Positions 1,951-14,429 of a stretch of DNA of 17,046 bases are shown one piece after another; position 1 is the first letter of the stretch; every line of letters starts with the position of its first letter. The stretch lies in IMG/VR virus record IMGVR_UViG_2651869780_000020, positions 1 through 17,046 of that record; one strand, 5' to 3'. The stretch is from a virus (taxonomy: Duplodnaviria > Heunggongvirae > Uroviricota > Caudoviricetes). The notes under the pieces were generated by a model. It saw only the letters and a program-made list of their open reading frames with translations, was not told the DNA's origin and made no database searches. Position numbers and translations under genes: made by a program.

Positions 1951-3204
1951 ATGGCTAACCAATTAGCAAAAGACCTTGAAATCATGTTCGAAAACTACGT
2001 TGAAGGCTTTGAGGCCGCCTGCGTAGTTTCCCGTAACGCTAAAAAATTCCGTCCCGGTGATACAGCAATGCAGCGAGCAGGTGATGTTCTGTATCGTCCG
2101 CAGCATTACCACATGAACATTGAGGAAGGCCTAGACCTCAGCGGCAAAACGCCAACAGCACTGGTTCAGCGCCTTGTTCCTTCTGTGTTCAAGGAGCCGA
2201 AAAACATTCTGTACACTCTGGATGCGCGTGAAATGCGTGACCCGGAACATAAAACTGAAGCTGGTCGCGCCGCAGGTATGCGCCTTGCTGCACAGATTGA
2301 CTCTGACCTGATTTCCATGGTCACGCAGCGTGCTACTAACGTGATCACAATGGCTGACTCAACCACTGGTTCACAGGGTCGTGATTTGTGGAACTGTGCG
2401 GCAGGTATTGATGCCACCATGACGGCGATTGGTGTACCACAGGGTATCAACCGCCGCTCTTTCTGGAACCCCTTCAACTACAAAGACCTTGCTGGCGAGC
2501 TTGGTCACCGTGCCTATGCTCAGGGCGCAACCCTGACAGCATACGAAAAAGCGCAGATCCCTCCGGTTGCGTCCTTCGATAGCTACAAGACCGATATTTC
2601 TGGTCGTGTTCCGAAGGGTACAGCAACTTCCATTACGCTGGCAGCAGCACCTGCGCACAAGGTTGAAGCGAAAGATGCTAACGAAATGCCAGTGGATAAC
2701 CGACAGGGGACCATTACGGTATCTGCTGAAGGTTTGCAGGTTGGCGATGCGTTTACCATCGCAGGGGTGAATTCCGTACACCAGATCACCAAAGATACCA
2801 CCGGGCAGCCGCAGGTATTCCGCGTTCTGGCAGTTAGCGGAACGACAGTAACTATCTCCCCGAAAATTCTGCCGCCTGACAACGCGGATGTCGCCAGCCG
2901 TCCATATGCAAACGTTGATGCTAATGCGGCAAGTAGCGCAGCAATCACCATTCTCAACAAAAATGCCGCACCGGCTAACCTGTTCTGGGCTGATGGTTCT
3001 GTTGAACTGATGTACGGCAAACTGGCGTTCCCGACTGGTCAGGGTCCACAGGTAATGACAGCAACCACCGAGCAGGGCGCTACACTGATCATGTCTTACG
3101 CCTTCGACCACATCAAAGGCGTAACCACTGCGCGTTTCACCACTCTGTACGGTTGCTCTGTACTGGTTCCTGAATATACGGGCATCGTTATTGCCGGGCA
3201 GTAA
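1951..3204 (+). CDS. Major capsid (coat) protein, P22 gp5 family
   Basis: 417 aa. Recognisable similarity to P22 coat as recalled (e.g. RPYANVDANAASSAAITILN and FWADGSVELMYGKLAFP versus P22 RAYANVN...AVNILN and FWADDAIRIV). Position directly after scaffold; followed by a hairpin terminator. Confidence 0.9.
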   Translation: MANQLAKDLEIMFENYVEGFEAACVVSRNAKKFRPGDTAMQRAGDVLYRPQHYHMNIEEGLDLSGKTPTALVQRLVPSVFKEPKNILYTLDAREMRDPEHKTEAGRAAGMRLAAQIDSDLISMVTQRATNVITMADSTTGSQGRDLWNCAAGIDATMTAIGVPQGINRRSFWNPFNYKDLAGELGHRAYAQGATLTAYEKAQIPPVASFDSYKTDISGRVPKGTATSITLAAAPAHKVEAKDANEMPVDNRQGTITVSAEGLQVGDAFTIAGVNSVHQITKDTTGQPQVFRVLAVSGTTVTISPKILPPDNADVASRPYANVDANAASSAAITILNKNAAPANLFWADGSVELMYGKLAFPTGQGPQVMTATTEQGATLIMSYAFDHIKGVTTARFTTLYGCSVLVPEYTGIVIAGQ

Positions 3205-12543: not shown

Positions 12544-12729
12544 ATGACCATAGAAGAACGCCTGAACAACATTGAGTTGAACCAAACCCTGCTTGACCAG
12601 CGACTTTCAGATCTTGAGCTTAAAGATCTTGATGCGCAAATATCAGAAGCAGAAGCCAAGCTCTCCAGCTTAAACCACCGCAAGAAGCAAATCCGCAACA
12701 GAATTACTCAGGGACGCGGAAGCTGTTGA
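12544..12729 (+). CDS. Small coiled-coil protein (61 aa)
   Basis: ATG 12544 preceded by a strong SD AAGGAG (12533-12538) at 5-nt spacing; the GTG at 12496 in the ORF track is rejected. Sequence MTIEERLNNIELNQTLLDQRLSDLELKDLDAQISEAEAKL.. is heptad-like. The 3' end overlaps the convergent 69-aa ORF by 26 nt. Confidence 0.5.
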   Translation: MTIEERLNNIELNQTLLDQRLSDLELKDLDAQISEAEAKLSSLNHRKKQIRNRITQGRGSC

Positions 12730-12913
12730 GGTGGGATGCTAGGTCTCTATCGTTAAAATCAAGGCTGCTAATCATTTCATTGTAAATGGCGTTTTTATCT
12801 TCCATTGGCAGTCTTGAGTAAACCAGACACAGAGCATATTTCAGGGAGTTTAGCTCTTTCTCTAGCTCTTCCTTGCTTGACGTTGTTGACTTAATAAACT
12901 GTTTTTTATTCAT
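12704..12913 (-). CDS. Hypothetical 69-aa protein, translationally coupled downstream of mnt
   Basis: On the - strand its ATG overlaps the mnt TGA stop (ATGA at 12910-12913). No recognisable family. Confidence 0.45.
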   Translation of the reverse strand: MNKKQFIKSTTSSKEELEKELNSLKYALCLVYSRLPMEDKNAIYNEMISSLDFNDRDLASHLNSFRVPE

Positions 12914-13161
12914 TTTGCATCCTTACCATACATGGTCTTTAGCGTCTCAACATCGTGTTCAAGATCTATCAATCGTGATGCTATAGTTGCAAGGTCTAGT
13001 GCTTGAATGTGTTTATTTTTTTCGGTCCACGCTTCAAGTGCCGCGACCATCTCAGCATTTAATGAACGAGAATTAGCCTCAGCCAGTTCAATAAGACGTT
13101 CCTTTATCTCTACAGGAAGCCTCAGATTCACTTGAGGGTTTTTGTACTTACGATCAGACAT
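12910..13161 (-). CDS. mnt: Mnt-like ribbon-helix-helix repressor (Arc/MetJ superfamily)
   Basis: 83 aa, the same length as P22 Mnt as recalled. N-terminus ..NLRLPVEIKERLIELAEANSRSLNAEMVAALEAW matches the RHH beta-strand/helix pattern of P22 Mnt (..FRMPMEVREKLKFRAEANGRSMNSELLQIV..). Divergent from arc. Confidence 0.8.
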   Translation of the reverse strand: MSDRKYKNPQVNLRLPVEIKERLIELAEANSRSLNAEMVAALEAWTEKNKHIQALDLATIASRLIDLEHDVETLKTMYGKDAK

Positions 13162-13266
13162 CGGCGCATCCTGAATAATTTTTTACCACAGGATATGTAG
13201 GTATCTATTGACTATCAATGCGTACCTAAATGCTATGTATGCGTACCACGTACAACGGAGGATGCA
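13162..13266. promoter_or_regulatory. Divergent promoter/operator region between mnt and arc (Pmnt/Pant-like)
   Basis: 105-bp intergenic region. Palindrome ATTGA-cta-TCAAT (13207-13219) contains back-to-back -35-like hexamers (TTGACT on +, TTGATA on -). Direct repeat ATGCGTACC at 13218-13226 and 13239-13247, 21 bp apart. Inverted ATCCTG/CAGGAT (13168-13173 / 13189-13194). AGGATGC precedes both start codons. Exact -10 elements are ambiguous. Confidence 0.55.
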
Positions 13267-13407
13267 ATGAAGGTAAAAACACTGCGTATGCCAGAGAAGC
13301 TAGAAAAAATTCTTGAAGAAAAAGCAAAGGAAGAGTGTCGCTCATTCAGCGCAGAAGTAATTAAACGGGTGCTGGACAGCCTGAGGAGAGAGGGGATAAC
13401 GGTGTGA
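13267..13407 (+). CDS. arc: Arc-like ribbon-helix-helix repressor (46 aa; below the ORF-track size cutoff)
   Basis: Own translation: MKVKTLRMPEKLEKILEEKAKEECRSFSAEVIKRVLDSLRREGITV. The segment RSFSAEVIKRVLDSLRREG resembles P22 Arc RSVNSEIYQRVMESFKKEG as recalled. SD GGAGG at 13256-13260. Sits between mnt and ant as in P22 immI. Confidence 0.75.
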   Translation: MKVKTLRMPEKLEKILEEKAKEECRSFSAEVIKRVLDSLRREGITV

Positions 13408-13423
13408 TTCGCTTGGATGCGGC

Positions 13424-13472
13424 AAAGAAATCAAAACAGTGAAGCCCCAACTGCGGGAACAGTCAGGGCTTC
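13424..13472 (-). terminator. Intrinsic terminator oriented for leftward (- strand) transcription in the arc-ant spacer
   Basis: Stem GAAGCCC (13441-13447) / GGGCTTC (13466-13472) with an inner ACTG/CAGT helix. On the - strand it is followed by ACUGUUUUGAUUUCUUU (complement of 13424-13440). No U-run follows it on the + strand. Confidence 0.55.
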
Positions 13473-13505
13473 GGTATCGTAAAACCACGCATAGGAATTA
13501 ACGAC
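13424..13505 (-). ncRNA. Predicted sar-like small antisense RNA, complementary to the ant ribosome-binding site
   Basis: Inferred from a - strand promoter inside the ant 5' end (see 13512-13540) plus the - strand terminator at 13424-13472. The predicted transcript of about 80 nt is antisense to the ant SD (agga 13493-13496) and start region, analogous to the P22 Sar RNA. Ends are approximate. Confidence 0.4.
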
Positions 13506-14429
13506 ATGAAAAGTATAGCAACAGCAGTATCTACTATCAATGTACCATTCCACGGCGCAGAGCTTTATGTTGTCAATCACAACGGCGAACCGTATACCCC
13601 AATGAAACCTATCGTTGAGGGAATGGGGCTAGACTGGAAATCTCAACATAAGAAGATTTCTCAACGCTTCTCGAAGGGTATGGTGGAAATCACCATACCT
13701 TCTGCCGGTGGGGTGCAAGCCATGATTTGTATGGCTTTACGAAAATTGGCAGCTTGGTTGAACAGCATCAGTCCTAACAAAGTCCGCCCTGAAATCCGCG
13801 ACAAGGAAATCCAGTATCAGGAAGAGTGTGACGATGTGCTCTACGAGTACTGGACTAAAGGCCATGTAGTTAACCCACGCAAAGCTAAAAAGGCGTTGCC
13901 GGGTAAAATCACCACTGAACAGCAGGAAGCCATTAAACAACTCGTCATGAGTCGCGGTCAGTCTCTGCCAAAAGAAAAACAGGCTAAGGCGATGATCACC
14001 ATGTGGTCGTCACTGAAATCTCATTTTGGGTGTTCATACAAAGAAATCAGCGATGAGCAGTTTACCGAAGCTCTGTCACTTGCAGCTCGCGTTCCGCTTG
14101 AAGGCGAGTTAATCGGCAAACAAGAGAAGAAAGCAAACGAGCTTTCTGCAAAAGAAGCAAACAGCCTTGTATGGTTATGGGATTATGCCAACCGCTCACA
14201 GGCATTATTCCGCGAACTGTATCCGGCGCTAAAACAAATTCAATCGAACTATTCCGGCAGATGTCATGACTGCGGTTATGAGTTCTCCCGTATTATCGAT
14301 ATGGCGAGAGATGTTTTAATCAACCATACACGAGATGTTGATATTAATGAGCCAGACGGACCAACGAATCTTTCCGCATGGATGAGACTTAAGAATAAAG
14401 AATTACCTCCTTCAGTACATAACTACTGA
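13506..14429 (+). CDS. ant: Antirepressor (Ant-like)
   Basis: 307 aa versus about 300 aa for P22 Ant. Located directly downstream of arc. N-terminal pattern (..VPFHGAELYVV..GEPYTPMKPIVEGMGLDWKSQHKKI..) is reminiscent of phage antirepressor N-terminal domains. Followed by a terminator. Confidence 0.7.
   Translation: MKSIATAVSTINVPFHGAELYVVNHNGEPYTPMKPIVEGMGLDWKSQHKKISQRFSKGMVEITIPSAGGVQAMICMALRKLAAWLNSISPNKVRPEIRDKEIQYQEECDDVLYEYWTKGHVVNPRKAKKALPGKITTEQQEAIKQLVMSRGQSLPKEKQAKAMITMWSSLKSHFGCSYKEISDEQFTEALSLAARVPLEGELIGKQEKKANELSAKEANSLVWLWDYANRSQALFRELYPALKQIQSNYSGRCHDCGYEFSRIIDMARDVLINHTRDVDINEPDGPTNLSAWMRLKNKELPPSVHNY
13512..13540 (-). promoter_or_regulatory. Psar-like leftward promoter inside the first codons of ant
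   Basis: On the - strand: TTGATA (complement of 13535-13540), 17-bp spacer, TATACT (complement of 13512-13517); the predicted start is near the ant ATG. Confidence 0.5.

Follow-up and report, generated by a model that had tools for sequence, protein, structure and literature searches.

Genes and Features of the Region

The window (the whole stretch of DNA analyzed, 17,046 nucleotides) contains a region that, from its genes and their order, is a P22-type immI module of the CUS-3/SEN22 kind. Its open reading frames and its Pfam and Rfam matches give the order mnt-like gene, divergent promoters Pant and Pmnt, arc-like gene, sar antisense RNA and ant, in agreement with an initial annotation that had placed ant, with an antisense RNA, behind an mnt/arc control region. 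The protein-coding genes are as follows:

12910-13161, minus strand: mnt-like ribbon-helix-helix (RHH) repressor gene, 83 aa, with PQVNLRLP as its N-terminal strand (Pfam Arc PF03869, E = 3.2e-10; alignment to P22 Mnt and Arc)
13267-13407, plus strand: arc-like RHH gene, 46 aa (Pfam Arc, E = 1.2e-7; alignment)
13506-14429, plus strand: ant antirepressor gene, 307 aa (Pfam P22_AR_N, E = 2.4e-43; P22_AR_C, E = 1.1e-27)

As in P22, two divergent Arc-family RHH genes lie upstream of an antirepressor gene that has both P22_AR_N and P22_AR_C domains, and in the late region the module comes shortly before the tailspike gene (an ORF with a P22-like N terminus that starts at 14530 in the ORF list); the P22 module has the same genome position, between the ejection-protein genes and the tailspike gene. 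The records closest to the window are Lederbergvirus phages and E. coli prophages, and the closest phage is CUS-3, with 96% identity across mnt, arc, sar and ant; the CUS-3 record does not annotate the arc-like ORF. The mnt-like protein is 88% identical to its SEN22 homologue. Such immI regions are highly mosaic (PMC2629481).

The initial annotation pointed to a repeat shared by the mnt/arc control region and the start of ant. The exact 10-mer ACTATCAATG is indeed present at 13211-13220 and 13533-13542, with no other plus strand occurrence in the window, and direct reading of the sequence finds GTATCT and TACC flanks at both copies, those of copy 1 being set off by insertions of 4 and 2 bp. 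A consensus scan likewise agrees that the complement of each copy is TTGATA, the predicted -35 hexamer of a leftward promoter with a 17-bp spacer. Both copies are also present in CUS-3, where the copy-1 flank is GTGTCT and so already differs from GTATCT.

Copy 1 Is Part of a Periodic Array in the Control Region

Copy 1 and the elements around it are as follows:

13201-13226, plus strand: copy 1, GTATCT (13201-13206), ATTG, ACTATCAATG, CG, TACC (13223-13226), comprising a degenerate box 1, the divergent -35 core and box 2
13190-13252, no strand: putative operator array of three ~21-bp units (U0, 13190-13210; U1, 13211-13231; U2, 13232-13252)
13190-13218, minus strand: predicted Pmnt, -35 TTGATA (13218-13213), 17-bp spacer, -10 TATCCT (13195-13190), consensus match 9/12
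13208-13236, plus strand: predicted Pant, -35 TTGACT (13208-13213), 17-bp spacer, -10 TGCTAT, geometry by analogy with the annotated P22 Pant

Between the mnt-like and arc-like genes lies an array with a period of ~21 bp, of which copy 1 forms unit 1. The box-like hexamers of the array, at 13200, 13211, 13221, 13232 and 13242, are separated by 11, 10, 11 and 10 bp. The sequence ATGCGTACC is present twice, 21 bp apart, and a search of the window with ACTATCAATGCGTACC at up to three mismatches matched only 13211-13226 and 13232-13247; nothing else in the window resembles copy 1 as closely as the latter, which is the adjacent unit. Pant and Pmnt have their -35 hexamers back to back, overlapping by one base (13213), and both hexamers lie in the copy-1 center, TTGACTATCAA. 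The Pmnt -10 retains the form TAnnnT in 42 of 44 distinct relatives while its sequence varies, and the Pant -10 is TACTAT or TAATAT in 41 of the 44, compared with TGCTAT in the window. The copy-1 flank is also variable among relatives (GGTATC, CGTACC, GGTAAC, GGTACC or GGTGTC). A 37-bp imperfect palindrome (13195-13231) is present in this window, and copy 1 was considered as a plain palindromic operator (GGTA...TACC); relatives with a CGTACC box 1 show that it is the direct periodic pattern that is conserved, and the palindrome was rejected as the operator.

The core CTATTGACTATCAATRCGTACC was found in 84 viral contigs with 50 distinct flanks, and the array is conserved in 50 distinct control regions. 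Relaxed scans of viral contigs, with the 14-nt core alone or with two GCGTACC boxes 14 nt apart, gave matches that among those listed were almost all due to chance and included only two additional relatives (L161 and L300), and a protein-based search replaced them. In the resulting protein-ascertained sample the core is present in 14 of 24 loci and a rearranged version in 4 more, and it is shared by at least nine genera (Yersinia, Arsenophonus, Providencia, Xenorhabdus, Photorhabdus, Lonsdalea, Erwinia, Pantoea and Chimaeribacter).

The PQVNLRLP strand is invariant in 80/80 core-bearing loci, and the leftward repressor holds Y(K/R)(N/H)PQVNLRLP while its overall identity drops to 41%; in Proteus relatives, where the strand is a different one, the operators are unrelated. 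RHH arrays are coated cooperatively by dimers, with the ribbon setting the specificity (PMC3413123, PMC2724298), and RHH repressors require at least two dimers on regularly spaced boxes, a 1-bp change in spacing being enough to impair binding (PMC3413123). Copy 1 has the corresponding sequence features, namely co-occurrence with the putative cognate gene across divergent relatives and at least two boxes at regular helical-repeat spacing, which is consistent with its being part of an operator of the Mnt-like repressor. Because the PQVNLRLP recognition strand always accompanies the array, we infer that the binder is the Mnt-like protein, which would use this strand to bind the array cooperatively, on the (G/C)GTA(T/C)C boxes that flank the core and recur once per helical turn, and would thereby occlude the promoters. 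Assignment of the array to the Arc-like protein was also considered and rejected, since the rightward Arc-like strands vary and the core stays fixed, and there may be separate Arc-like contacts within the same region.

Copy 2 Lies in the First Codons of ant and Overlaps Psar

Copy 2 is surrounded by a different set of elements:

13438-13505, minus strand: sar antisense RNA (Rfam RF00262), covering the ant ribosome-binding site, terminator hairpin at 13441-13472 from a terminator scan
13512-13540, minus strand: predicted Psar, -35 TTGATA (13540-13535), 17-bp spacer, extended -10 TGcTATACT (13520-13512), consensus match 10/12 with TG
13527-13546, plus strand: copy 2, GTATCT (13527-13532), ACTATCAATG, TACC (13543-13546), identical to ant codons 8-14 (V-S-T-I-N-V-P)

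The sar match, at 13438-13504 on the minus strand, covers all 68 model positions (1-68) and scores 76.6 bits, above the gathering score of 43 (E = 1e-15). It lies directly upstream of the ant ATG at 13506 and is antisense to the ant ribosome-binding site, with which sar RNA made from Psar would pair. As in P22, the RF00262 match is full length, the terminator hairpin is the same and the 5' end abuts the ant ATG. The predicted leftward promoter is within the first ant codons, at a position homologous to the annotated P22 Psar (statements here about P22 Psar rest on the NC_002371 annotation), and it has the same extended -10, TGcTATACT, in ant codons 3-5. The -35 hexamers differ, GTGTTA in P22 and TTGATA (5/6) in the window, because the Ant N-terminal codons differ (EAVNTSY and STINV, respectively); the T-I-N codons of ant, read on the opposite strand, would provide the window's Psar -35.

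Across 29 distinct ant starts of the STINV type, neither the -35 nor the -10 of Psar varies, and third-codon positions are variable at 4 of 6 sites inside copy 2 compared with 28 of 37 downstream. The copy-2 changes AAT to AAC and GTA to GTG erase the ninth base of the 10-mer and the TACC flank. Natural synonymous variants include GTATCTACTATCAACGTGCC for the copy-2 sequence and, at Psar, ...ACTATCAACGTGCC.

The initial annotation suggested that the two leftward promoters might share a recognition element, and one form of this would be a CA-TTGATA-GT sequence with outer GTA(T/C)C motifs recognized by RNA polymerase or a host factor at both. The two promoters do agree in all 10 bp around the -35 and in the 17-bp length of the spacer, but the spacing between hexamer and outer motifs is not the same in both copies, GTGTTA stands at the -35 position of the annotated P22 Psar, which relies on its extended -10, and the other ant types whose sequences were read carry GTGAAA-like hexamers. 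Psar therefore needs no such sequence, and we regard an element of this kind as highly unlikely. More generally, an element common to both promoters beyond the sigma-70 hexamer finds no support, as the copies assort independently (below) and the indels break the box phasing.

Under another reading, the Mnt-like (or Arc-like) RHH repressor of the array would bind copy 2 as well, over the Psar -35, so that maintenance repression would be coupled to sar levels. Were this so, the classic P22 immI circuit would gain cross-control of an antisense RNA by a protein. Copy 2 contains three box-like hexamers (AGTATC, ACTATC and TGTACC), and its octamer TCTACTAT recurs unchanged as the right half of the Arc operator of P22. 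In the stretch that aligns to the Arc strand PQFNLRWP, the Mnt-like protein carries Q, N and R, and binding at a site that overlaps a promoter element would have an effect. However, the copy-2 boxes are 7 and 8 bp apart rather than 10/11, RHH binding is spacing-critical, as noted above, and the operator-like positions of copy 2 drift synonymously, the promoter hexamers alone being fixed. Ungapped, copy 2 matches the 16-bp unit at just 10/16 positions, which is why the three-mismatch search missed it. From this misphasing, and from its lack of consistent co-occurrence with the Mnt-like gene (below), copy 2 does not qualify as an RHH operator of that repressor, and we infer that neither repressor binds it as an operator.

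The 10-mer codes for T-I-N-V, part of an N-terminal motif that is conserved in Ant, and it is found again in other Ant lineages. This bears on the notion that copy 2 descends from an operator unit, duplicated or moved by recombination into the ant 5' end, that has since decayed and lost 6 bp. Two short indels suffice to align 26 bp, and the mosaicism of immI would offer opportunity for such an event, but copy 2 is in frame within the Ant motif TINVPFH, which is common to several Ant lineages that differ at synonymous sites, P22-type ant starts align with it codon for codon and lack copy 2, and the similarity does not extend beyond 20 bp. Descent from a common operator unit is thus scarcely credible.

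Statistical Weight of the Repeat

The expected count of the 10-mer, if specified in advance, is 0.04. Exact 10-mer direct-repeat pairs of any sequence no more than 400 bp apart number 28 over the whole window, compared with 8.8 ± 4.0 in dinucleotide shuffles. A 10-mer word common to these two particular regions was reached in 17/2000 shuffles, and the gapped local alignment score of 12 between the control region and the ant start was matched by 2/3000; the next-best gapped scores among 830 real 81-bp tiles of the window are 11.5, 11.0 and 10.5. The repeat is thus the best match in the window, yet it is at the edge of the chance distribution and its significance is modest. These shuffle frequencies, unusual for this region pair, speak for a shared repressor site.

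Matches equally long exist between control regions and ant starts of different phages: 8-9-nt words are often common to such pairs, and the Emek control region has an 11-mer in common with this window's ant start. In a 9 x 9 matrix, natural pairings of control region and ant score no higher than cross-phage combinations. The sequence TAGAAGCA, which P22 has both in its Arc operator and at its ant start, prompted consideration of a general rule by which the ant start carries a piece of its cognate operator; this rule was rejected, both on the matrix result and because an 8-mer was reached in 226/2000 shuffles.

The Two Copies Assort Independently among Relatives

Lack of conservation in related phages, which the annotation had named as a sign of chance similarity, is what is seen: many of the ant 5' ends that follow copy-1 control regions are without copy 2. 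Copy-1 control regions are accompanied by an exact copy 2 at 18 loci, a variant at 26, an ant start without copy 2 at 23 and no ant that was found at 15, and other control regions (P22, Emek, EC.P3, PhiR12 and TL-2011b types) by an exact copy 2 at 9, a variant at 18 and none at 8. The exact copy 2 is therefore present with 18/82 copy-1 control regions and 9/35 of the other types, counts that are not phylogenetically independent and that come from two locus sets both ascertained by DNA patterns. At least eight ant starts without copy 2 are paired with the repressor and array, and at least four other control-region types (P22-, Emek-, EC.P3- and PhiR12-type) precede an exact copy 2. SEN22 is an example of the former, with the same control region and repressors as the window but a P22-type ant start without copy 2.

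Contrary to what a dispersed regulatory repeat would show, the two copies are thus not retained together, and constraint beyond local function is not seen. From these comparisons the repeat appears not to be a conserved control feature. The proposal that one repressor, Mnt or Arc, serves both sites and links mnt with the antisense RNA likewise goes unsupported: assortment in these mosaics, box phasing and synonymous drift all speak against it, as does the altered copy-1 flank of CUS-3, and we consider it improbable.

Where the ant start can be read, about two-thirds of the copy-1 loci have a STINV-type ant. Physical linkage suffices to account for this frequency, and selection may also lie behind it.

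Origin of the Similarity

The two copies are very probably parts of two different, separately constrained immI elements, the operator array with its divergent promoters and the ant start with Psar, whose likeness is coincidental. The sigma-70 -35 hexamer makes up 6 of the 10 bases of ACTATCAATG and is present at both copies, and coincidence is made likelier because both hold this near-consensus TTGATA. The sole link between the copies would then be RNA polymerase, which would recognize both -35 hexamers. Two observations sit less comfortably with coincidence: the match is unusual for this pair of regions by either shuffle measure, and both copies lie at the -35 and surroundings of leftward promoters, 322 bp apart. 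On this evidence the two promoters are best annotated separately, and the repeat is unsuitable as a motif for operator prediction.

The Q/N/R match to the Arc strand, the box-like hexamers of copy 2 and the presence there of TCTACTAT together mean that weak binding to a lone or misphased subsite may occur. In mosaics that join a STINV-type ant to this control region, the Mnt-like repressor could conceivably bind the TCTACTAT/ACTATC subsite over the Psar -35 weakly and lower sar RNA in lysogens, which we think very doubtful; if true, the maintenance repressor would be tied to the antisense control of ant by accident and in a lineage-specific way.

Comparison with Known Systems

No experimental study of a CUS-3/SEN22-type control region was found in the literature searched. 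Like P22 immI, the window's module has divergent mnt and arc-ant units under two Arc-family RHH repressors, with operators (putative here) that overlap the promoters. The two differ in that the 29-bp P22 promoters overlap almost completely (14793-14821 and 14798-14826), whereas those of the window are back to back, and in that P22 has one 21-bp Arc operator and a separate Mnt operator, whereas the window has a three-unit ~21-bp array of different sequence. The PQVNLRLP strand of the window's Mnt-like protein resembles that of P22 Arc (PQFNLRWP) and not that of P22 Mnt (PHFNFRMP). The CUS-3/SEN22-type control region is in these respects a variant architecture of a known system, and its description is a by-product of this analysis: a ~21-bp periodic array with back-to-back promoters, conserved together with the PQVNLRLP repressor across many Enterobacterales. 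The array is like those bound by ParG, CopG and MetJ in having short boxes at fixed spacing, with binding here suggested by sequence, and unlike them in its box sequence and in the 10/11-bp alternation, which are peculiar to this family.

Gene content of the immI region

Open reading frames and family searches identify the region as a P22-type immunity I (immI, "ant moron") module; the reference was P22 NC_002371, in which Pant, Pmnt, the Arc and Mnt operators, sar and Psar are annotated. The sar RNA is a full-length Rfam match (76.6 bits; gathering score, 43), and the protein genes come from ORF and family searches.

Genes of the module in the window
13161..12910, leftward: mnt-like gene, Arc-family, 83 aa
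13267–13407, rightward: arc-like gene, Arc-family, 46 aa
13506–14429: ant antirepressor gene, 307 aa, P22_AR_N and P22_AR_C
13504..13438, minus strand: sar antisense RNA
13441–13472: sar terminator hairpin

The tailspike gene comes after ant. Among deposited phages, E. coli K1 phage CUS-3 comes closest (96%), and many E. coli genomes hold near-identical prophages. The epsilon34 genome paper describes CUS-3 as lacking arc (PMC2629481); CUS-3 does hold a 46-aa Arc-family ORF (~1845–1985 of its locus, L001), as does the window (13267–13407), and in the GenBank record of CUS-3 the stretch has only the label "boundary sequence". These parts are of known kinds, a P22 immI control region and Psar/sar, and the initial annotation had correctly recognized the Arc-family genes, ant, sar and a TTGATA -35 at both leftward promoters.

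The repeated 10-mer and chance expectation

It had also been proposed that a 10-mer present in the mnt/arc control region (copy 1) and at the ant start (copy 2) is a recognition element shared by two leftward promoters, or is bound in both places by the same repressor, Mnt or Arc. Re-reading of the sequence bore out the 10-mer, its positions, its GTATCT and TACC flanks and the 4-bp and 2-bp indels; it occurs exactly twice in the 17-kb window, on the + strand both times.

Copies of the 10-mer (sequence reading)
13211–13220, + strand: copy 1, GTATCT (13201–13206)-ATTG-ACTATCAATG-CG-TACC (13223–13226)
13533–13542, + strand: copy 2, GTATCT (13527–13532)-ACTATCAATG-TACC (13543–13546)

Chance alone would offer someone scanning a window about 9 pairs of exact 10-mer repeats ≤400 bp apart. 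For this particular pair of regions, 17 of 2000 shuffles reach a 10-mer word and 2 of 3000 reach the same gapped alignment score, and the control region scores 11.5, 11.0 and 10.5 with other tiles of the window. Part of this excess over chance is accounted for by the fact that both sequences are promoters sharing a -35 hexamer, which makes up 6 of the 10 bases. When control regions were compared with ant starts of different phages in a 9 × 9 matrix, shared words of 8–9 nt were common in the cross-phage combinations, and the Emek-type control region (1349–1370 of L010, the Emek locus) has an 11-mer, TACTATCAATG, in common with the window's ant start, which exceeds the window's own match in length. 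One relative (L019) has an Emek-type control region joined to an exact copy 2. P22 (L011) shares TAGAAGCA between the left half of its Arc operator (2799–2819) and its ant start (~3110–3119), where it falls within the Psar spacer; since 226 of 2000 shuffles reach an 8-mer, this sharing is probably due to chance.

Copy 1 lies in a periodic array that overlaps predicted divergent promoters

Copy 1 is the middle of the mnt/arc intergenic region, where the following features were found.

Features around copy 1
13218..13190, leftward: predicted Pmnt, TTGATA-17-TATCCT (consensus scan)
13208–13213 and 13231–13236, top strand: -35 (TTGACT) and -10 of predicted Pant, 17-bp spacer
13200, 13211, 13221, 13232, 13242: box-like hexamers, (G/C)GTA(T/C)C or NCTAT(C/G)
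13190–13252: array of three ~21-bp units (U0, U1, U2), defined by box spacing

The two -35 hexamers stand back to back with base 13213 common to both, unlike P22, where Pant and Pmnt overlap almost fully. Among 44 distinct relatives the Pant -10 is TACTAT or TAATAT in 41 and the Pmnt -10 is TAnnnT in 42; both keep the TAnnnT form with variable sequence, which supports the two assignments. The window's own Pant -10 is TGCTAT, a variant also seen in two relatives (L050 and L081); this A-to-G change loses the conserved second base and makes an extended -10, TGcTATGTA (13231–13239), 3 bp downstream. In the window prophage this may make Pant weaker or move its start.

The box-like hexamers around the core are spaced 11, 10, 11 and 10 bp, and ATGCGTACC is present exactly twice, with 21 bp between. 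The GTATCT flank of copy 1 is a degenerate box 1 (CGTACC, GGTAAC, GGTACC or GGTGTC in relatives) and its TACC is part of box 2. Searched with ≤3 mismatches, the 16-mer ACTATCAATGCGTACC matches only itself and the adjacent unit at 13232–13247, so that within the window the nearest counterpart of copy 1 is 21 bp off, not 322 bp. An origin of copy 2 as the remnant of an operator unit that was once duplicated is highly improbable.

Eighty-four viral contigs carry a 22-mer core of this region, and its flanks there take 50 distinct forms. Flanks could be read at 80 loci; at every one of them the product of the leftward gene retains Y(K/R)(N/H)PQVNLRLP as its N-terminal arm and strand, in proteins that fall to 41% identity, and the strands of the rightward Arc-like proteins are not uniform (KVKTLRMP, KPSSVRFP, EPVSVRMP). 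A second sample, ascertained from the protein alone with one genome per species, has the core in Yersinia, Arsenophonus, Providencia, Xenorhabdus, Photorhabdus, Lonsdalea, Erwinia, Pantoea and Chimaeribacter. In Providencia and Moellerella the core is rearranged, with TATCAATGCGTACC retained and GGTATC boxes 10–11 bp apart; Proteus relatives have a different strand and unrelated operators. Because the specificity of ribbon-helix-helix (RHH) repressors is set by the ribbon and N-terminal residues (PMC3413123), we infer that the array would be the operator of the Mnt-like repressor, whose strand is similar to that of Arc. This CUS-3/SEN22-type control region, with its back-to-back promoters and 21-bp periodic array in a geometry unlike that of P22, is an uncharacterised architectural variant, for which a literature search found no experimental study; from Yersinia to Photorhabdus and Erwinia, the array geometry and the PQVNLRLP repressor are conserved together.

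Copy 2 is the Psar -35 region and ant coding sequence

Promoter at copy 2
13540..13512, leftward: Psar, TTGATA-17-TATACT with TG extension (consensus scan)

Psar is annotated at the corresponding place in P22, which makes copy 2 the -35 region of Psar. The P22 Psar has the identical extended -10 (TGcTATACT) and differs in its -35 (GTGTTA); it is without the shared sequence, which speaks against a promoter-specific element beyond the hexamer, a highly improbable reading. Copy 2 is also ant codons 8–14 (V-S-T-I-N-V-P), the 10-mer encoding T-I-N-V of the Ant N-terminal motif (S)TINVPFH, which several Ant lineages spell with different synonymous codons. Among 29 distinct sequences from 75 loci with this STINV-type ant start, neither Psar hexamer (-35 or -10) varies, and variable third-codon positions are of the same order within copy 2 (4/6) and downstream (28/37). 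The two commonest changes in copy 2, AAT>AAC and GTA>GTG, alter the 10-mer at its ninth base and destroy the TACC flank. Judged from these comparisons, the constraint on copy 2 is that of coding and promoter hexamers, which leaves outside it the features resembling copy 1.

The two sites are inherited independently

The mosaic structure of immI provides a natural experiment on the proposed link. SEN22 has a window-type control region and repressors with a P22-type ant start lacking copy 2, and TL-2011b has a copy-2-type ant start after an unrelated control region. In the viral-contig survey, copy-1-type control regions were accompanied by an exact copy 2 in 18 loci, a variant in 26, an ant without copy 2 in 23 and no ant found in 15; for other control regions (P22, Emek, EC.P3, PhiR12, TL-2011b) exact, variant and absent copy 2 numbered 9, 18 and 8. 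At these pattern-ascertained, mutually non-independent loci, copy 1 therefore has no association with an exact copy 2 (18/82 versus 9/35).

A real second binding site of the Mnt-like repressor at copy 2 would agree with the pair-specific p-value, with an octamer, TCTACTAT, that equals the right half-site of P22 Arc, and with the presence of Q, N and R in the Mnt-like strand where it aligns with that of Arc. Binding by RHH repressors takes two or more dimers on boxes of regular spacing and is impaired when this spacing changes by 1 bp (PMC3413123); Arc recognises two inverted TAGA boxes (PMC2724298). In copy 2 the box-like hexamers are spaced 7 and 8 bp, versus 10 or 11 in the array. We consider such a site improbable, and the independent mosaics, the survey counts and this spacing leave the regulatory link unsupported. 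Very probably the match is a coincidence between two elements under separate constraint: copy 1 would be an operator plus divergent-promoter core, and copy 2 would be Ant codons doubling as the Psar -35. As far as the comparative evidence tells, the shared "element" appears to be no functional feature.

Other features of the module

A 69-aa ORF (12704–12913, minus strand) overlaps the mnt-like stop codon (ATGA) and had no match in a Pfam search; ORFs of the same size also follow mnt in Emek (orf69) and Kapi1 (Kapi1_062). A terminator-like + strand hairpin with a T run (13120–13137) lies antisense within the 5' part of the mnt-like gene and could affect transcription that runs on rightward out of the late operon. 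EC.P3, phiv205-1, 611R6 and Emek (L005, L006, L007 and L010) have an additional 57–89-aa ORF in the arc–sar interval, missing in the window and in P22, consistent with a distance from control core to ant that varies from 252 to 483 bp.
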